From the NCBI GenBank assembly GCA_002496015.1, contig DAIF01000006.1, forward strand, positions 7,403 to 71,402: a DNA stretch of 64,000 nt, written 5' to 3'. The translations under genes and the position numbers were made by a program. Under the pieces are notes generated by a model. That model had not been told where the DNA came from, did no database searches, and saw only the letters and a list, made by a program, of their open reading frames with translations. Origin of the DNA: Candidatus Pacearchaeota archaeon UBA73 (GTDB lineage Archaea > Nanobdellota > Nanobdellia > Pacearchaeales > GW2011-AR1). Each line of letters starts with the position of its first letter. The stretch's first letter is position 1. Positions 3,373 through 59,878 of the stretch are shown piece by piece.

Positions 3373-4980
3373 CTATCGTCCTCCGCCCCCGCCTCCGCCA
3401 ACCCCTCCTCCACCCACACCTCCGCCGCCCGCCGCCCCGGAAGAAACTGCGAAAGAAGTAGCCGAATAATGAACTCCTATATAAAGATGGTATTCATTCT
3501 CGTTAATCAAATGTCTTGCCTTAAGTTCCCTGATGACTTTTGATGAGACTCCAAGAGCCGTAGAGTAAACTAAATAATGCTCCCAAAGTTTGACTGCCTG
3601 CGAGCCTTCGTGCTTCATTGCAAAACTGCCCGCCAGCCATTTCTTGAACGCCTGCCAATGCTGGTATTCACGATAAAAGTCGCCCTTAAATCTTGTGAAC
3701 AATGCTGAACTGGAAAGCGCGATCAGAAACACAAAAATAAAAACTCCCCATGGGATAAGGACGATAAGGTTTTCAAAAGAATATGCTACTACTAAACCTG
3801 CCGCCACCACAATCACAAAAGACAAATAAAAAACATTCATCGATAAATAGTTCTTGCCTTCCTCCTTAACTTCTTTCTTTAGTTCATTAAATCTTTTCTT
3901 CAATTCAAAACTAATCATGAATTGCTCTGAAGTTTTCTGTAGATTGAAATATTTTCCATCGCGATTCTTATCTTTCGCATTCGCTTGCAGGTAGGAAAGT
4001 ATTTCATAAAATTTTGTTTCTACTTCATCAAGCTTCTTCGGCTCATTTAATTTCACCATCACCTGCTTTTCATCTTTTAACTTTATGTCAATAATCTTCT
4101 TATGATAGAACTCTATCAACAAAGCAGATATGAAATCTTTGTCTATTGTGGAGAAGGGTGGGTTGAAATACGCCGCGATCTGCCAGGCTTTTCTTTCTTG
4201 TGGATAAGAACTCATTTGGCTCGGAAAATCGGTATGCGTCTTTTCCCTTCCAAAAATATACCACATCCCAAAAAATAAAAATGCAGGTAAAATTAATAGA
4301 ATGAACTTCAATATCCTTTGGGAGCTATCAAACTCAAAATTCTCGAGATTATTAACGTTAAACATTGAAGTCTCACCTTCATACGGTGCATAAACAATCA
4401 CGTCTTCATCCGGATAATAAACCTCCTTCCTGACAACTTCTTGGCTGGTCACAAAATTATCTCCCATTCGTTTATGATTTCCCGCAGAATAAACAATGAA
4501 CTTGATGTAATTCCTGCCGTCAATCTCGAAAAGACTGGTCGGGTGAAGATCGTATCTAGCAGATAGCCAATAATTCTGTCCTTCAAAAAAACCGTATTCT
4601 GCCCCGAATGTGCATCCATATTCGTTACTCTCTGTGTATGGAAGACAATTTAATATTTCAGTTCCGTCTTCAAAAAAAGTGCAAGTCCCATCATAGTCTT
4701 GTAGATATGCTATTCCAGCTTCGCATTCCACCTCTTTCACTAAAATATATTGAGGATGCGGAGGGGCTATTGCAAAGGCAGGGTCTTTGAAATCCCTAAA
4801 AAACGTATGATAACTTTTGTCAGGTTCATAAAAAAGTTTCTCCTCGACGCTTAATCCCTCAATGCTCAACTCTGCCCTGTAAAAATTAAACTCCCATGAC
4901 TCTCCGTCGAAGTAATAAACCCCGACCCCGATAGCAAAAAGTATAATTGAGATAATGATGGCAACATTCATTTCCTTCAT
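3373..4980 (-). CDS. DUF2207-like membrane protein (N-terminal exported domain, TM helices, C-terminal Gly-rich tail)
   Basis: N-terminal TM/signal, internal TM helices, and a C-terminus SGAAGGGGVGGGGVGGGGGGGR typical of the DUF2207 architecture. The family assignment is from memory. Confidence 0.45.
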   Translation of the reverse strand: MKEMNVAIIISIILFAIGVGVYYFDGESWEFNFYRAELSIEGLSVEEKLFYEPDKSYHTFFRDFKDPAFAIAPPHPQYILVKEVECEAGIAYLQDYDGTCTFFEDGTEILNCLPYTESNEYGCTFGAEYGFFEGQNYWLSARYDLHPTSLFEIDGRNYIKFIVYSAGNHKRMGDNFVTSQEVVRKEVYYPDEDVIVYAPYEGETSMFNVNNLENFEFDSSQRILKFILLILPAFLFFGMWYIFGREKTHTDFPSQMSSYPQERKAWQIAAYFNPPFSTIDKDFISALLIEFYHKKIIDIKLKDEKQVMVKLNEPKKLDEVETKFYEILSYLQANAKDKNRDGKYFNLQKTSEQFMISFELKKRFNELKKEVKEEGKNYLSMNVFYLSFVIVVAAGLVVAYSFENLIVLIPWGVFIFVFLIALSSSALFTRFKGDFYREYQHWQAFKKWLAGSFAMKHEGSQAVKLWEHYLVYSTALGVSSKVIRELKARHLINENEYHLYIGVHYSATSFAVSSGAAGGGGVGGGGVGGGGGGGR

Positions 4981-5270
4981 AAAAAAATAAGGTCAGCCCA
5001 GATTAAAAAACTATTCTTTAGATTTGCTCGTTGAAAATACTTTTTGGGTTCGGATTATATTGAAAGTGGAGTCTGCAATTTCTGGTTTTTTCAATAATGC
5101 CACAGTATAGGAGCATTTATATAGCCAGGATTTTTCATTTTTTTGACTAGCGGAAGGTTATCTTCGATGCGGTCAGTAAATGGAACGGTATAGTTTAACG
5201 CGGAAATTACGCGCATCGAATGGAAACAGTTTTTTCTTAATGTTAATTAAAGATTCGGGAGGTAAAATAT

Positions 5271-5495
5271 ATGGGTAATTTTGGAGAGCGAGGCGGTGGA
5301 CGAGGCGGTTTCGGAGGCGGACGCGGTGGCGGTGGCAGGGGTGGCGGATTTGGCGGACGAAGAAACTTCGGACCACGAGAAATGCACAAAGCTACTTGCG
5401 ATGAATGTAAGAAAGAATGCGAAGTTCCATTCAAACCTACAGAAGGCAAGCCGGTTTATTGCAAAGAATGTTACGCGAAGCATAAGAAATTTTAA
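5271..5495 (+). CDS. small RGG/Gly-Arg-rich protein with C-terminal CxxC-x17-CxxC zinc ribbon (putative RNA-binding)
   Basis: N-terminus is GERGGGRGGFGGGRGGGGRGGGFGGRR, followed by CDECKKECEVPFKPTEGKPVYCKECY. AGGTAAAATATATG RBS-like context upstream. Confidence 0.6.
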   Translation: MGNFGERGGGRGGFGGGRGGGGRGGGFGGRRNFGPREMHKATCDECKKECEVPFKPTEGKPVYCKECYAKHKKF

Positions 5496-5581
5496 TTTCT
5501 TATAATTCTTTTATTTGTTTTTTATTCTATTTTAATTGATGTTAAACACGAATTTATAAATAACTTCTACTTCGGATTTTT

Positions 5582-6709
5582 ATGAAAGTCTGGACCGTGG
5601 TTGTTGTGAGTTTAGTCGTAGTGGGTTCTGTGATGCTTTTTTCTTTTCTTAATGGAAATAATGGAAGAGGATTTGGGGGATTGAGAAATGAGCGCGGCTG
5701 CTTAGTCGCGGCAGGTTATGAGTGGAATGAAAGCGAGCAAGAGTGCATGAGGGGCGGGGGGTATCAGGTCAGAGATTTTCAGTCTTGCGTTGACGCAGGT
5801 TATTCTGTCGGAGAATCTTTTCCAAGGAAATGCAGTACGCCCGGTGGGAGGAGTTTTGTAGAAGGCGTTGATTTTTTCGCGATATTCAGTGAGCAGTTGA
5901 GAGTAAGGGCAATCGCTAATCTTGGGGCGATACCGATAGAGGGGTTTGATGCTGATATGTATATGGACGTTTTTCCCGGACTGATGCGTAGTGATTTCAA
6001 CGGAAGCGGGGCGATCGGGGGTAGGTGGTTGTATGAAAACGACGAACTGACTTTTGTCAGAGAAGATTATACGCAGATTAGTTCTGCTGACGGGACTTTA
6101 ACTAATGCAGGAATAATGCAATTATACAAGAATCTGATAGAGAGATTAGGGATTGACATCCAGAGAATATCTGATATTGAGGAGATATTTAGGGTGATTG
6201 AGGGTGGGGAGAATTGGAATGAGGATGAAATTATCTTGATGAGGAATATGCAAACTGGAGAGTATATGTGTTTTGGTTGTGATGGTGAATTGTGTATTGA
6301 TCCTGCGCAGGTGATGAAACTCGTCGCTGAAACTCCTTCGATTCATTGCACGATAGGTTTTGATGTGGTTGGGGCGGTTGAAGAGTATGTGCCTGTGCCA
6401 CAATTTTTCCCGGGAGACTCGAATTGTCCTGCAGGACAAACAGGAAGGTATGAATATGGTGGTTTTATCTTTAAGCTGGTTGATTGCAAGCCGTTTCCGT
6501 TTGATTTGGGGAACATTTGTGGCAGTGATGCTGAGTGCGAATTCGGGTGTGTTACAACCAAAACCGATTTGTCGAATGTTGGCTGTGCTTTGGATTTCTG
6601 TCAGAATAGCTCGGTGTTCTGCGAAGGAATTCGTGGGCGGTGCGGACCTTATGGAGATGAAGAATTTAGAATTTTTGCGCCAGGTCAAGTGAAATGGGTT
6701 TGTGGATGA
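5582..6709 (+). CDS. secreted cysteine-rich protein, unknown function
   Basis: N-terminal signal/TM MKVWTVVVVSLVVVGSVMLF. About 20 Cys, several in CxxC or paired arrangements. No enzymatic motif recognised. Confidence 0.55.
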   Translation: MKVWTVVVVSLVVVGSVMLFSFLNGNNGRGFGGLRNERGCLVAAGYEWNESEQECMRGGGYQVRDFQSCVDAGYSVGESFPRKCSTPGGRSFVEGVDFFAIFSEQLRVRAIANLGAIPIEGFDADMYMDVFPGLMRSDFNGSGAIGGRWLYENDELTFVREDYTQISSADGTLTNAGIMQLYKNLIERLGIDIQRISDIEEIFRVIEGGENWNEDEIILMRNMQTGEYMCFGCDGELCIDPAQVMKLVAETPSIHCTIGFDVVGAVEEYVPVPQFFPGDSNCPAGQTGRYEYGGFIFKLVDCKPFPFDLGNICGSDAECEFGCVTTKTDLSNVGCALDFCQNSSVFCEGIRGRCGPYGDEEFRIFAPGQVKWVCG

Positions 6710-9324: not shown

Positions 9325-9469
9325 GGCTCTGTTGAAAATTTTCGCCTCAGATAATTGGACTTGCCGATTTTGTAATAATATCTCTGCGTTCGTAAATTGG
9401 ACTTGCCGTTGAGTGCGGCGCAAGTCAAATAATAGCGGCTCGGCGCGTTTTTGGCTTTTTCAACAGAGC
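9325..9469. mobile_element. short MITE-like element (subtype 2) with the same terminal inverted repeats but a different core
   Basis: GGCTCTGTTGAAAATT at 9325 and TTTTCAACAGAGC ending at 9469. The core contains two direct copies of AATTGGACTTGCCG plus GCAAGTCAAATAATAG. The same core motifs recur at 46095..46354 and 59390..59608. Confidence 0.5.
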
Positions 9470-9482
9470 ATGTATAAGAAGA

Positions 9483-13576: not shown

Positions 13577-14059
13577 ATGGAGCCGGAAGTTCTTTTTTTG
13601 AGATGCGCTTTTCCTTGCACGGAAGGGAAGGTACATAGGAATGAAATAACACGGGATGATTTTGATTATCTGGAGGAAGCTGCGAGAGAAGGTAGGGTTG
13701 TTAAGCATGAGATGTTAGGAAGGGTTTATTCCTTTGCGGTTGCTGAAATGACTAAAGTTGCTGATGAATTGGGAAAGTCTCTTTGGGATAAGGCTGTTGT
13801 CGAGGAGTATTTCTTTGTTAGGCATAATCAAGTTATTGATGCACGGGAGGGACCGTATTCTGCGGCGCCAGAAGTAATGTGCGAGTATTGCAAGGTTTAT
13901 GATGCGGAAGTAATTGATGTCGGAAAGAGAGATTTATTGGTGAGGTATGGCGATAAAACCAGGCACGTTCTGAAAGATTTTGTGCAAGACGCAAAAGAAG
14001 GGGACAGGGTTAAGATTCATCAAGGTTATGCAGTGATGATTGAGGATGGGTTCTGTTGA
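13577..14059 (+). CDS. HypC-like C-terminal domain protein with ~100-aa N-terminal extension
   Basis: The last ~60 aa (MCEYCKVYDAEVIDVGKRDLLVRYGDKTRHVLKDFVQDAKEGDRVKIHQGYAVMIEDG) mirror HypC (MC.., VDFG..R.V.L.LV.DAKxGDxVLVHVGFA). An internal ATG at 13877 would give a stand-alone 60-aa HypC paralogue. The start is chosen just after the hypC stop. Confidence 0.5.
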   Translation: MEPEVLFLRCAFPCTEGKVHRNEITRDDFDYLEEAAREGRVVKHEMLGRVYSFAVAEMTKVADELGKSLWDKAVVEEYFFVRHNQVIDAREGPYSAAPEVMCEYCKVYDAEVIDVGKRDLLVRYGDKTRHVLKDFVQDAKEGDRVKIHQGYAVMIEDGFC

Positions 14060-14260
14060 AAATCTTTCCGAAATGTCTGCGCCCACCCGGATAATCTGAT
14101 TTGCGAAGCAAATCAGTAATTGATAGTAGACATTTCGAGTTTTGCGCAGGTTTCAGATTCCCACTTTGGATTCTCCTACGGAGAAAACCCTCCCTTTCCA
14201 CCTCTCCGCCCTTCGCCCCAAATTCTAGTAAACCTGCAGTTTGCGACTTTTTCAACAGAA
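14049..14260. mobile_element. MITE-like element copy 2 (module A hairpin plus short module B)
   Basis: GGTTCTGTTGAAAATCTTTCCGAAATGTCTGCGCCCACCC... at 14049. It ends ...GTAAACCTGCAGTTTGCGACTTTTTCAACAGA at about 14260. Confidence 0.6.
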
Positions 14261-14309
14261 CATTGAGGATGAAAAAGAATAAAAACTAACTTTTCTTTTT
14301 TTCGGCGAG

Positions 14310-38922: not shown

Positions 38923-39050
38923 CTTCCAAATAGAAAACGAGCGTTTATATAATTTCTTAAACTATCTCGCTTACCGGAGCGTTTGTAGATAAATAGTCGT
39001 TCGCTAGCGCCTTTATGCGTCATTTGACTTTTTCAACAAAGTCAAGACTA

Positions 39051-39399
39051 GGCTCTGTTGAAAATCTCTCTTGCGCAGGTTTCAGATTCCCACTTCGGAT
39101 TCTCCTGCGGAGAAAAACCTAACTCACGACCCCACACGCAATTGTATGCAAATTAATCTAGCATTTGATACCCTCCCACCCGCCCCACGGAATATTGTCC
39201 CCCAGTCACCCCGCCGCCCAGACAATATTCCATAACGCTAGATTAATCTGAACTTACTCGTGCGAAGTGCGCTCGCCCTGTCCGCCTCTCCGCCCTTCTG
39301 CTCGCAGCCACGCTCGAAATTAATCAACCTTTGCACTCGCGTAACGTGCTCGCCCCAAATGTTAGTAAACCTGCAGTTTGCGACTTTTTCAACAGAGCC
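39051..39399. mobile_element. MITE-like element copy 3 (no module-A hairpin; central nested palindromes; long module B)
   Basis: GGCTCTGTTGAAAATCTCTCTTGCGCAGGTTTCAGATTCCCACTTCGG... at 39051. Internal inverted repeats ATTAATCTAGC/GCTAGATTAAT and GGAATATTGTC/GACAATATTCC. Ends ...CTGCAGTTTGCGACTTTTTCAACAGAGCC at 39399. Confidence 0.6.
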
Positions 39400-48861: not shown

Positions 48862-48917
48862 ATTTATTACTCTCGAACACGGTTTTTAAATCTTTCTCGT
48901 TGTTCGGGTTCAGCCAA

Positions 48918-48992
48918 CGGACCCGACAGGATTTGAACCTGCGACCTACGGATTAGAAGTCCGTCGCTCTATCCAAACTGAGCTACGGGTCC
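48918..48992 (-). tRNA. tRNA-Arg (anticodon TCT)
   Basis: Manually folded cloverleaf: GGACCCG acceptor, GCTC/GAGC D-stem, ACGGA-CTTCTAA-TCCGT anticodon arm, GCAGG-TTCAAAT-CCTGT T-arm. No encoded CCA. Confidence 0.75.
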
Positions 48993-49073
48993 ATAAGGTA
49001 AGGACAAGAAGTTCCTTTTTAAGTATATCTCCCAACAATATCTTTAAATAACATTTGCCTTTTGCTAAGCCAT

Positions 49074-49184
49074 GCACGGATGGCGAAATCGAAACGAAGT
49101 TTCTCAATCGCCATCTTCAAACAACGCACGGATGGCGAAAAGCAAAACGCAAAACGTTTTTCATGCTCGCCATCTTTAGACCCT
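49074..49184 (+). repeat. two tandem ~52-59-bp hairpin repeats, each beginning with the first 14 nt of tRNA-Cys (GCACGGATGGCGAA)
   Basis: Repeat 1 starts at 49074 and repeat 2 at 49126. In each, GATGGCGA pairs with TCGCCATC downstream to give an 8-bp stem and a 21-28-nt loop. They lie immediately upstream of tRNA-Cys. Confidence 0.6.
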
Positions 49185-49257
49185 GCACGGATGGCGAAGT
49201 GGTTAACGCGCTCGGCTGCAGCCCGAGTATCCCCCGGTTCGAACCCGGGTCCGTGCT
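49185..49257 (+). tRNA. tRNA-Cys (anticodon GCA)
   Basis: GCACGGA acceptor, CTCGG-CTGCAGC-CCGAG anticodon arm, CCCGG-TTCGAAC-CCGGG T-arm, TCCGTGC 3' acceptor. No encoded CCA. Confidence 0.75.
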
Positions 49258-49543
49258 TAACTTAAAATGGTTGAAATAAGCCCAGAAGAATTCAGAGAAG
49301 AAAGAATGAGTCATAATGGCGTCGAAGAATATTTTAGATAGATAGGCGAAAATCCTGAGAGATTTCAACCAATTCACTTATCCGTTGCTTACGTCCGTGC
49401 AGGTAACGACGACGCTAGAATCCGCGACACAGAACTAAAACTTGCCAGAGAAGCCATGGCTAAAAATGTGAGTATGTAACAAACATAGATTACTGCGGAC
49501 ATTGCATCGCAGCCACAGGTCAGAAACCTAGAAACTCATGATA

Positions 49544-49883
49544 GGCTCTGTTGAAAATCTTTCCGAAATGTCTGTCTGCGCCCACCCGCTCGGATAGTCT
49601 GATTTGCTTCGCAAATCAATAATTGATAGCAGACATTTCGAGTTTTGCGCAGGTTTCGGATTCCCACTTCGGATTCTCCTGCGGAGAAAACCCCCCCTTT
49701 CCACCTCTCCGCCCTTCGCCCCAAATTCTAGTAAACCTGCATGCATGCGCAGCCCAATCTGAGCGGGTGGCGAGCGCACTTCGCACTAGTAAATTAAGCA
49801 AAGATTGATTGCGTTCGGGGTAGCGAGCAGGGGCGCAAGCGCGACAAATTCAGCTGCGCATTTAAGACTTTTTCAACAGAGCC
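49544..49883. mobile_element. MITE-like element copy 4 (module A hairpin plus extended 3' module)
   Basis: GGCTCTGTTGAAAATCTTTCCGAAATGTCTG... at 49544 and ...GACTTTTTCAACAGAGCC at 49883. Long-range inverted repeat CCCACCCGCTC / GAGCGGGTGG inside. Confidence 0.6.
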
Positions 49884-49943
49884 CCCATAATAAATAACTT
49901 TATAACCCCTTATTTCTTAAATAAATTACCAAAGGAGGATGCA

Positions 49944-50138
49944 ATGGCAATCCAAGGATACAGCGTAAAAGCAAAGAAGAAAGTAGACATCCAAGACCCT
50001 GTTGTAGAAAAGACTGCGAAAGGCGGCTACATAGCAAAAGGAAAATGCCCTGAAACAGGCATAACAGTCTGTGCAATGATGTCTGAAGAAAACGCAAATA
50101 AGGCCATCCAGGCCGGCGAAGCAAAGAAAGGTTTCTAA
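49944..50138 (+). CDS. 64-aa basic small protein (possible SH3-like nucleic-acid-binding protein)
   Basis: Strong RBS AAAGGAGGATGCAATG. Lys-rich beta-type sequence KAKKKVDIQDPVVEKTAKGGYIAKGKCPETG. The fold assignment is speculative. Confidence 0.4.
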   Translation: MAIQGYSVKAKKKVDIQDPVVEKTAKGGYIAKGKCPETGITVCAMMSEENANKAIQAGEAKKGF

Positions 50139-53041: not shown

Positions 53042-53113
53042 TGGACCCGCCGAGAATCGAACTCGAATCTCCCGAATGCCATTCGGACATACTAACCGTT
53101 GTACTACGGGCCC
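53042..53113 (-). tRNA. tRNA-Ala (anticodon GGC)
   Basis: GGGCCCG acceptor with a G3:U70 wobble pair (Ala identity), anticodon arm TCCGA-ATGGCAT-TCGGG, T-loop TTCGATT. No encoded CCA. Confidence 0.7.
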
Positions 53114-53332
53114 TTTCTCCTTTCAAAAATTTTAGAGTTATAAATCTTCGCAACAAAACTGTTCTGTCCGGAATTGGTTTTTGGTGGAGCTTACTCTTTT
53201 AGGAGATCTCCCTACAATACTGCTCAAGTCTGGTGTCGAATATTTCTACTCGTCTCAGATTGGGCTTCAGATCGGGACTGGATTGCAAATGCTTAAAAAT
53301 AACGCTGTTTACATTATTTTAGGAGGTGAATC

Positions 53333-59232: not shown

Positions 59233-59325
59233 TTTTAAAAGATGAAATATGGGTTATTAAGGTTTAGGTTAACGGACGTTGTTGTCATGGTTTCTTGACA
59301 TTCTGGCTTTTCAACAAAGCGGAAG

Positions 59326-59608
59326 AGTTCTGTTCTTTCCGAAATGTCTTACTCGCGGTCACGCGCGGATTTGTTGGGAGTAATTTGGATGTTGGAGGCG
59401 GGTAAAAATTGGACTTGCCGCTTTCATAACAATAACAAACTATTTTTGTTCTTAAATTGGACTTGCCGCTTTCGAGAGGTGCAAGTCAAATAATAGGCAA
59501 CTTCGCTTTTTCTTAAATTGGACGCCCTTCTTAGCGACTGGCGTCTTAATAATAGCCGCTCGCTGCGCTCGCTTGTTGCTCGGTGCGTTTTGGTTTTTTC
59601 AGCAGAGC
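59326..59608. repeat. degenerate composite MITE (module-A-like 5' end, subtype-2 core, 3' TIR)
   Basis: GAGTTCTGTTCTTTCCGAAATGTCT at 59326 is a degraded 5' end. The core has AAATTGGACTTGCCGCTTTC twice plus GCAAGTCAAATAATAG. It ends GGTTTTTTCAGCAGAGCC at 59608. An orphan 3'-TIR-like GGCTTTTCAACAAAGC sits at 59305-59320. Confidence 0.45.
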
Positions 59609-59680
59609 CGGTTCGTGACGCGCCCGCTCTTTCGCCTCAATATTCGGAAAATCAACAAACTCCGGACAGAGTTATATTAA

Positions 59681-59878
59681 GGGTTCTGTTGAAAATCTCT
59701 CTTGCGCAGGTTTCAGACTCCCACTTTGGATTTCTCCTATGGAGAAAAACCCGCCCTGTCCGCCACCCCGCCCTTCTGCTCGCAGCCACGCTCGAAATTA
59801 ATCAACCTTTGCACTCGCGTAACGTGCTCGCCCCAAAATTTAGTAAACCTGCTAATTCTGACTTTTTTCAACAGAGTC
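59681..59878. mobile_element. MITE-like element copy 5 (no hairpin module; long module B)
   Basis: GGTTCTGTTGAAAATCTCTCTTGCGCAGGTTTCAGACTCCCACTTTGG at 59681. It ends ...CTGACTTTTTTCAACAGAGTCC at about 59878. Confidence 0.6.

Follow-up and report, generated by a model that had tools for sequence, protein, structure and literature searches.

The present analysis concerns a tRNA-Cys locus within a 64,000-nt stretch of DNA from Candidatus Pacearchaeota archaeon UBA73 (contig DAIF01000006.1; the whole stretch is referred to as the window, and positions are counted from its first letter). Immediately 5′ of the tRNA gene lie two tandem repeats, here called units, each of which opens with a copy of the first 14 nt of the tRNA and is predicted to fold into a hairpin of its own. 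Loci from related assemblies and metagenomes are designated by L numbers. The features at the locus are these.

49043-49050, plus strand: TATA box TTTAAATA, at −31 to −24 from the first G of unit 1 (49074) and the sole TATA-like site upstream of tRNA-Cys on this strand
49074-49125, plus strand: unit 1 (type A), 52 nt, with homologous units in L004, L005, L017, L023, L026, L028 and L031
49126-49184, plus strand: unit 2 (type B), 59 nt, with type-B relatives in L029 (two units) and possibly L021
49185-49257, plus strand: intact tRNA-Cys (GCA) gene, called by ARAGORN and by the Rfam tRNA model (61.5 bits), discriminator U, CCA not encoded
48917-48993, minus strand: divergent tRNA-Arg (TCT) gene, called by ARAGORN, with its own TATA box CTTAAAAA at plus-strand 49016-49023 (−31 to −24)
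49544-49883, no strand assigned: copy of a miniature inverted-repeat transposable element (MITE) with perfect 14-nt terminal inverted repeats (TIRs), which is the right boundary of the locus and not part of the element

The 14-mer GCACGGATGGCGAA had been claimed to occur three times, and exactly three copies are present in the whole window, starting at 49074, 49126 and 49185; shuffled sequences searched with up to two mismatches permitted gave a mean of 0.32 matches. The third of these opens the tRNA-Cys(GCA) gene. The original prediction took this copy for the functional tRNA and placed the repeats between a minus-strand tRNA-Arg and a MITE, and both statements are borne out by the gene calls and boundaries given above. 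The Rfam score of 61.5 bits was obtained with laxer filters applied to the region, the default gathering run over the whole window having missed the gene. Filter loss of this type could conceal the gene at 49185-49257 from automated annotation.

The units follow a common plan. The 5′ half consists of tRNA nt 1-14, then AAUC (type A) or AAA with a short GC helix (type B), and a variable stem-loop; the 3′ half consists of UCAA or UUAA, a segment antisense to the tRNA from nt 13 down to nt 3-6, and a linker, followed by the tRNA. The linker is A/C-rich, 7-15 nt long and ends in a pyrimidine, and the antisense often carries a C11·A mismatch (UCACC). In unit 1, the sense copy (49074-49087) is followed by AAUC, the upper stem-loop (49091-49103), UCAA, the antisense (49108-49116) and the linker (49117-49125); nt 5-13 of the copy (49078-49086) pair with the antisense UCGCCAUCU over 9 bp, one of them G·U, and the upper stem is formed by 49091-49095 with 49099-49103. 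Unit 2 is composed of the sense copy (49126-49139), an AAA bulge, a GCA/UGC helix, the inner stem-loop (49142-49159), the antisense (49167-49175) and the linker (49176-49184), with 49130-49138 paired to 49167-49175. The computed folding energies are −17.3 kcal/mol for unit 1 (z = −4.4) and −18.3 kcal/mol for unit 2 (z = −3.9), in either case with none of 200 shuffles as good, and a covariance model of the unit scores the two at 64 and 46 bits. Of the earlier claim of an 8-bp hairpin in both upstream copies, the hairpin stands, with 9 bp paired in unit 1. In the window type, nt 1-4 of the sense copy fall outside the hairpin and yet are identical to the tRNA.

A T5 run lies in the inner stem of unit 2 at 49157-49161 (CGTTTTTC), and T4-T5 runs are present also in the type-B units of L029 and L021. 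Oligo-T is a termination signal in archaea and, given these runs, type-B units might attenuate read-through into the tRNA. The AUCACC within the antisense resembles the 3′ end of 16S rRNA, a likeness which we take to be coincidental.

The gene order RpoL, tRNA-Arg, tRNA-Cys, DUF5679 and glycyl-tRNA synthetase (GlyRS) is kept at six loci, the window included, and at five of these a unit is situated directly 5′ of tRNA-Cys (two units in the window; one each in L004, L005, L017 and L021). The sixth, L006, represents an empty site. A metagenome scan that required the presence of a unit added five distinct loci with one to three units, namely L023 with three tandem units of 49 nt, L029 with two, and L026, L028 and L031 with one each; the matches L022, L024 and L032 are repeats of L004 or L005, and L025, L027 and L030 are chance or bacterial matches that contain no unit. 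Units 2 and 3 of L023 are identical and therefore point to a recent tandem duplication. Identity to the tRNA extends to nt 14 in most units, one nucleotide further in L017 (nt 15) and two further in L026 (nt 16), and covers 10 nt in the L021 unit. As searched with the covariance model over 261 kb (window and loci), with BLAST in agreement, units were found only upstream of tRNA-Cys. According to the original prediction, absence from all relatives would mark the repeats as neutral debris; the unit is in fact shared by most of the syntenic loci and by the metagenome loci. L003, an independent assembly of the same organism, is identical in sequence over the entire region, and two contigs of a related strain, L001 and L002, stop short of the tRNA. 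In L021, tRNA-Arg is co-oriented with tRNA-Cys and not divergent from it.

The unit changes in concert with the tRNA that it precedes. The acceptor 5′ strand of tRNA-Cys occurs among the lineages as GCACGGA, GCGUACG, GCGCAGA and GCGCGGA, and in every lineage the sense copy of the unit presents that lineage's variant, with the antisense following too. All five differences of L017 from the window type are matched in the antisense, GUACGUGGCGA pairing with UCACCACGUAC. In an alignment of 12 distinct units, 83.7% of the cells are paired, as compared with 29-42% when the partners are slid by 1-3 columns, and 8 of the 16 pairs have changed on both sides, a value reached by none of 500 shuffles. Between close relatives, the inner stem is wholly different and still paired (GAAAC/GUUUC in the window, GAAUG/CAUUC in L004, GAAUGC/GCAUUC in L005), with the flanking loop letters constant across these replacements. 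The AAUC and UCAA/UUAA loops are conserved across lineages, whereas linkers and promoter spacers have freely diverged, and the divergence of the variable parts of the unit is about that of the promoter spacer. To judge by the alignments, this pattern agrees with vertical descent in which the conserved parts are under constraint. The architecture of the unit appears to be inherited because it is common to lineages with four different acceptor stems.

The position of the promoter places the units within the presumable tRNA-Cys transcript. The 8-mer found in the window recurs identically, and at identical spacing to the first unit, in L004, L005, L017, L028 and L029, and TTTATATA is present at −30 in L023 and L026. 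Scanned with the pattern TTTA[AT]A[AT]A, eight of the nine promoter-bearing loci have a perfect 8-mer that begins 31 or 30 nt before the first unit, L021 with −38 being the ninth, and between unit and tRNA there is no site matching at least 7 of the 8 TATA positions at any locus scanned. Among the other tRNA genes at these loci, 23 in number, the TATA start is most often −31 or −30 from the tRNA +1 and, in the unit-free L006, it is at −31 from tRNA-Cys itself. The first unit therefore sits where the 5′ end of a leaderless tRNA would sit, and the units probably constitute the 5′ end of the primary tRNA-Cys transcript. In L031 the unit follows a co-oriented tRNA-Arg, beginning 1 nt past the discriminator, with no promoter between the genes, and because of this immediate proximity it is likely cotranscribed with the tRNAs. 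L028 features two tRNA-Ala genes with a 1-nt spacer; tandems spaced so closely (Ala-Ala in L028, Arg-unit-Cys in L031) imply that an endonuclease is needed to make the downstream 5′ end. The leaderless type of promoter geometry is seen for most tRNA genes of the clade (window tRNAs at 48917-49023 and 53042-53150; loci L005-L031). Scans for intrinsic terminators and sigma-70 promoters are uninformative for an archaeon and were set aside.

As regards the copy that the tRNA uses, the proximal one (the tRNA itself) is perfect at every locus, and three units deviate: A1 in L005, G5 in L028 (still able to form G·U with the antisense) and nt 11-12 in L021. Selection therefore appears to be tighter on the proximal copy, which would then be the functional 5′ strand, with the units removed. 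Deletion of 49088-49198, or of a register-equivalent 111 nt, leaves the same tRNA, which is trivial in that the proximal gene is already intact.

We thus propose that the units are modules of a structured and concertedly evolving 5′ leader of pre-tRNA-Cys in a DPANN clade, self-sequestering and removed by RNase P. The probability we attach to this reading is about 0.5. On comparative grounds, the units are understood as a maintained leader element, so far undescribed, and not as random debris, because related archaea retain the module, and its changes there run parallel to those of their tRNA. Among the explanations that the original prediction had offered, a processed or structured leader fits best, given the promoter upstream of the first unit and the conserved compensatory hairpin, and scars of integration lose ground. 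To proceed, transcription would start at or next to the first G of unit 1 (49074), as suggested by the TATA spacing. Each unit would fold alone as it is transcribed, the copy of tRNA nt 3/5-13 pairing with the antisense that follows, and cotranscriptional folding would favour this local hairpin. The decoy 5′ strand and the anti-tRNA strand would neutralise each other, leaving the downstream tRNA free to adopt the cloverleaf, and RNase P would cut between 49184 and 49185, releasing a 111-nt leader of two hairpins. The pairing would be kept because either strand left free would disturb the tRNA: an unpaired strand would invade it, and the sense copy could replace the real 5′ strand at almost equal energy. 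Slippage or unequal exchange involving the 14-nt direct repeats probably accounts for the varying unit number (one to three), and the match among sense copy, antisense and tRNA may be kept by selection, or else by template switching or gene conversion between close repeats.

Several points weigh against this proposal. The start site, the cleavage by RNase P and the stability of the leader are all deductions from sequence. The strict leaderless promoter geometry of the clade is compatible with weak or absent RNase P. In favour of the proposal, RNase P is the usual means of removing a leader, and its proteins have been reported in most archaeal phyla examined, Nanoarchaeota included, with Nanoarchaeum equitans as the known RNase P-free case (PMC4919917, PMC6380272, PMC10941002); the Pfam scan, which covered 20 of the roughly 80 open reading frames (ORFs) of the window, found none of these proteins. 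Turning again to the points against, a discarded leader has no obvious need for conserved AAUC and UCAA loops, nor for tRNA identity at positions that the hairpin leaves out (nt 1-4, window type). Apparent compensatory changes could result from template switching without selection on the RNA. Retention of the unit despite direct repeats that favour its loss suggests a benefit that the leader model does not name, and the metagenome sample was chosen for unit-bearing loci. For retention and loop conservation together, either some benefit is needed or a continual homogenisation by template switching or gene conversion (PMC8794818).

How the arrangement came about is informed by two further features, one downstream of tRNA-Cys and one at the tRNA-Arg gene of a relative.

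49258-49401, plus strand: downstream module of the window, ending in TCCGTGC, a 7-nt copy of the acceptor 3′ strand (49395-49401), as read from the sequence
L004:4787-4853, minus strand: unit of tRNA-Arg(TCT), 67 nt, comprising tRNA nt 1-13, 37 nt, antisense GCGAGGCC and a 9-nt linker

The original prediction had noted a possible 7-nt echo of the tRNA 3′ end near 49397. It is present at 49395-49401; a 7-mer alone is weak evidence, and relatives have longer copies at the equivalent place. L004, L017, L023 and L028 have modules of 47-118 nt after tRNA-Cys, each closing with 12-23 nt copied from the tRNA 3′ end, after which a T-run follows; these copies lie 60-253 nt downstream (L004:5075-5340; L017:4990-5122; L023, reverse strand, +1 to +98 after tRNA-Cys; L028:9588-9657). 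The window module is unstructured (z = +0.4) and probably represents a degenerate counterpart; with it included, module lengths span 47-137 nt and the copies 7-23 nt. The start of the module is antisense to the distal copy in L017, L023 and L028 and, through a bulged helix, in the first module (m1) of L004, as exemplified by UUGAACCC/GGGUUCGA in L028, and the 3′ modules thus mirror the 5′ units. Two modules homologous to each other are present in L004, and their internal hairpins vary in a compensatory manner (GACGC/GCGTC, CCAGC/GCTGG, GATTGC/GCAATC). A 38-nt block (GTTTTTGATGCGCCAAAACTTTTTTCTAAAAAGTTT...) is 100% identical between L004:5282-5319 and L017:5061-5098, which is unusually conserved for intergenic DNA; the GlyRS proteins of L004 and L017 are each only ~85-88% identical to that of the window.

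The tRNA-Arg unit of L004 has a computed folding energy of −29.2 kcal/mol (z = −3.7). The tRNA-Arg genes of the window, L005 and L017 lack it, and it therefore appears to be a separate and more recent gain. From this unit and the 3′ modules it follows that partial self-copies with neighbouring antisense arise repeatedly at these tRNA genes, and the native flanks stay with the distal copies. L005 contains an additional ORF of ~150 amino acids between tRNA-Cys and DUF5679 (5200-5650), and L017 contains a 330-nt insertion between tRNA-Arg and the Cys promoter (4490-4800) as well as an extra minus-strand coding sequence downstream (5125-6000). Variable cargo around the tRNA pair fits a recombination hot spot. 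Two sources fit the origin of the copies: duplication by template switching, or the insertion of elements having in their attP the tRNA terminus together with an inverted repeat. The first sense-antisense-sense arrangement may accordingly have come from a local template-switch duplication or from ancient integration at the tRNA 5′ terminus; the latter is possible because copies of the tRNA 3′ end also occur downstream, and archaeal elements use the 5′ or the 3′ termini of tRNA genes as attachment sites (PMC3293823).

This leads to an alternative in which the units have no RNA role and are scars of serial site-specific integration at the tRNA 5′ terminus, the interiors having been deleted so that attL, a remnant and attR are left. 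Archaeal elements are known to leave direct repeats of a tRNA end, including a 5′ fragment upstream of the intact gene (PMC3293823). The 14-nt direct repeats corresponding to tRNA nt 1-14 are an att-type trait, and the 3′-end copies in L004, L017, L023 and L028 add to it. The retention of native flanks by the distal copies (the promoter before the first unit; T-runs after the distal 3′ copies) and the different cargo downstream of tRNA-Cys in L005 and L017 are also as integration would have it. Moreover, an antisense beside the proximal copy is the expected look of an inverted repeat in the attP core, and such antisense is found in each independent case (type A, type B, Arg unit, 3′ modules). 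We nonetheless consider the explanation unlikely. The DNA between the window repeats amounts to just 38 and 45 nt, and to 35-54 nt across units. An integrase or an att-flanked island nearby, named in the original prediction as the sign in favour of integration, did not emerge, the 20 scanned ORFs being devoid of integrase and transposase. Sequences resembling attP or the unit gave no matches in two scans of the IMG/VR collection with exact patterns, and there are none elsewhere in the 261 kb. Presence of the unit varies (L006 is empty and other loci have one to three), yet its architecture is inherited over the four acceptor variants, with an inner stem that is compensatory in close relatives, whereas scars would be expected to decay.

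A second alternative, which we regard as quite improbable, assigns the unit a device function by exchange of strands. The precursor can adopt two folds: the unit hairpin together with the cloverleaf, or a swapped fold in which the unit copy, hence the transcript's own 5′ end, becomes part of the acceptor stem, with the real 5′ strand held by the antisense. The swapped fold could gate the maturation of tRNA-Cys, or else provide a 5′ end defined by the start site that bypasses RNase P, and the mirror-image 3′ modules would share the same logic. In constrained folding, the energy gap between the two is ~0.4-3.7 kcal/mol at every tRNA-Cys locus; when folded without constraint, 6 of 10 take the swapped fold as their minimum. 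Identity of the sense copy to the tRNA even outside the hairpin (nt 1-4, window type), TATA-to-unit spacing equal to that of leaderless tRNAs and the L031 unit placed exactly where the tRNA 5′ end would be, 1 nt behind the preceding tRNA, are all consistent with such a device. Against it stands that the archaeal endonuclease could not splice the intervening segment. Neither computed folds nor a hand search revealed a bulge-helix-bulge (BHB) in the unit hairpins, the full precursors, the swapped fold or the T-loop duplication of L028. BHB splicing is excluded in that the junctions are same-sense and the central 4-bp helix needs a palindromic 4-mer, of which GCACGGATGGCGAA has none; the bulges of type-B units are of opposite handedness to a BHB. 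The deviant units of L005 (A1) and L021 (nt 11-12) would damage a tRNA built on the unit copy, and cotranscriptional folding would act in favour of the unit hairpin. We know of no ligand or factor for a switch of this kind.

The units could also be harmless by-products of slippage or template switching at a highly transcribed and structured gene, their covariation being mutational in origin. Template switching can make and maintain perfect hairpins and introduce multi-base ‘compensatory’ changes in a single event (PMC8794818), and sense-antisense-sense is its typical product. The recent gain of a similar unit by tRNA-Arg in L004 and the identical tandem units of L023 would be readily accommodated. 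But streamlined DPANN genomes keep the unit at five of six syntenic loci, even though direct repeats ease its irreversible loss, and the loops are conserved while linkers and promoter spacers diverged freely, so that neutrality throughout has, in our view, a slim chance.

Similarly small is the chance we give to the released hairpins being the actual product, that is, stable RNAs of ~50-60 nt acting in trans by mimicry of the 5′ part of tRNA-Cys (e.g., as a protein decoy), with the tRNA as processing handle: the folds are very stable, conservation of AAUC and UCAA/UUAA on varying stems suggests sequence-specific recognition, and the release of tRNA-linked small RNAs through tRNA-processing enzymes is well established in other systems, but known RNA families and motifs give no match (Rfam at E up to 10; inspection), and close relatives differ in copy number and in unit type, as genes for trans-acting RNAs rarely do.

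Other candidates were rejected. A dispersed mobile element or MITE is contradicted by the lack of unit copies elsewhere in the 261 kb, where the neighbouring MITE by contrast yields 17 TIR hits in the window. For a casposon, there are no terminal inverted repeats, Cas1 or PolB between the repeats or in the scanned ORFs; the repeat length of 14 nt is casposon-like in most units but becomes 15 in L017, 16 in L026, 13 in the Arg unit and 10 in L021. A CRISPR-like array is contradicted by ‘spacers’ that share homology across organisms and that pair with the ‘repeat’ in a conserved hairpin; no cas genes were seen. Derivation from an internally deleted tRNA copy is not supported by local alignment of unit interiors to the cognate tRNA interior (p = 0.03-0.93; 1000 shuffles), in which the L023 units alone were suggestive, and neither ARAGORN nor Rfam calls a tRNA at the units. 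Rfam returned the two tRNAs and only chance-level hits from 48880-49950 at E up to 10. By inspection, none of K-turn, C/D box, H/ACA, hammerhead and integron attC fits. The literature searched and Rfam contain no description of such a leader element.

The surroundings of the locus are archaeal in character, with genes for an archaeal-type pilin, a MinD-like ATPase, RpoL, a RadB-like ATPase and DNA ligase, and the nearest relatives of the GlyRS are from metagenome-assembled genomes of Pacearchaeota, Woesearchaeota and Nanoarchaeota. Because of this gene content and the closest GlyRS relatives, we consider the host a DPANN archaeon, Pacearchaeota- or Woesearchaeota-like. The MITE family, with TIR GGCTCTGTTGAAAA, accounts for 17 TIR matches in the 64-kb window against 0.8 expected (copies at 406-668, 9325-9470, 14049-14262, 39030-39399, 49544-49883, 59308-59878 and others), and the contigs L001, L002 and L003 of related assemblies end inside a MITE. 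At L001:1-130, in a closely related strain with an identical DUF5679 protein, three tandem copies of ~29 nt (ACCACCCCGCGCGATATTGTCTCCCGCC) lie upstream of DUF5679, together with a 32-nt repeat in two copies and then a variant MITE end. Relatives also have apparently intron-containing tRNA-Arg genes of 90-93 nt (L021:4047-4139; L011:2461-2550; L029, minus strand, +40 to +150 past tRNA-Cys).

If the leader reading is true, the locus reveals a conserved cis-acting RNA element of a type that we have not found described, in which a decoy of the tRNA's own 5′ strand is locked by antisense. It would offer a concrete handle on tRNA maturation in DPANN archaea, whose promoter geometry looks leaderless, as in Nanoarchaeum. 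The locus further bears on the origin and persistence of partial tRNA duplications and on how far template switching, as opposed to selection, can produce apparent covariation in RNA. For annotation it carries a warning, since the arrangement could be mistaken for integration scars, for a mini-CRISPR array or for a tRNA gene that is interrupted.

There exist likenesses to several known systems, each of which falls short in a defined respect. The leaderless and split tRNAs of Nanoarchaeum equitans share with the present case a DPANN host, a TATA box at fixed distance such that the start coincides with +1 and a short 5′ piece of tRNA that is followed by a complementary segment; here, however, the tRNA-Cys gene is complete, the complement pairs with the fragment itself and not with a partner transcript, and no BHB junction is possible. 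Read from the first unit, the gene appears interrupted after nt 14, reminiscent of the archaeal BHB introns in the D-loop and T-loop, but the units lack the BHB motif, which cannot form between same-sense repeats. Casposon or Cas1-type integration produces target duplications of 14-15 bp at tRNA genes (PMC5137440) and is alike in the 14 nt, the location adjacent to a tRNA and the tandem arrays. The duplication in the units, by contrast, is inside the 5′ end of the gene, and the inserts are homologous across lineages. Template-switch hairpins (PMC8794818, PMC10710096) exhibit the same close sense-antisense-sense arrangement with arms that change together. Template switching is a mutational mechanism rather than an element, and as such it explains origin and concerted change, not retention.

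Archaeal integrative elements of the SSV and pNOB8 types likewise place a copy of the tRNA terminus in direct orientation beside the intact gene; the displaced fragment retains the native flank, and both 5′ and 3′ termini can be affected; the 5′ fragment of tRNA-Thr in Caldiarchaeum subterraneum is a precedent among direct repeats of tRNA ends (PMC3293823). The tRNA-Cys units differ by having 38-45 nt between the copies with no recombinase found, by being common to diverged lineages with compensatory changes, and by the pairing of each fragment to a local antisense. With pre-tRNA leaders removed by RNase P, the units share the position between promoter and tRNA +1 on the same strand, and an unstructured linker with a pyrimidine at −1 before the cleavage site. 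To our knowledge, ordinary archaeal leaders are not conserved structures. The tRNA-Cys leader is set apart from them by an exact copy of the first 14 nt of its tRNA, by the antisense to that copy, and by evolving together with the tRNA.

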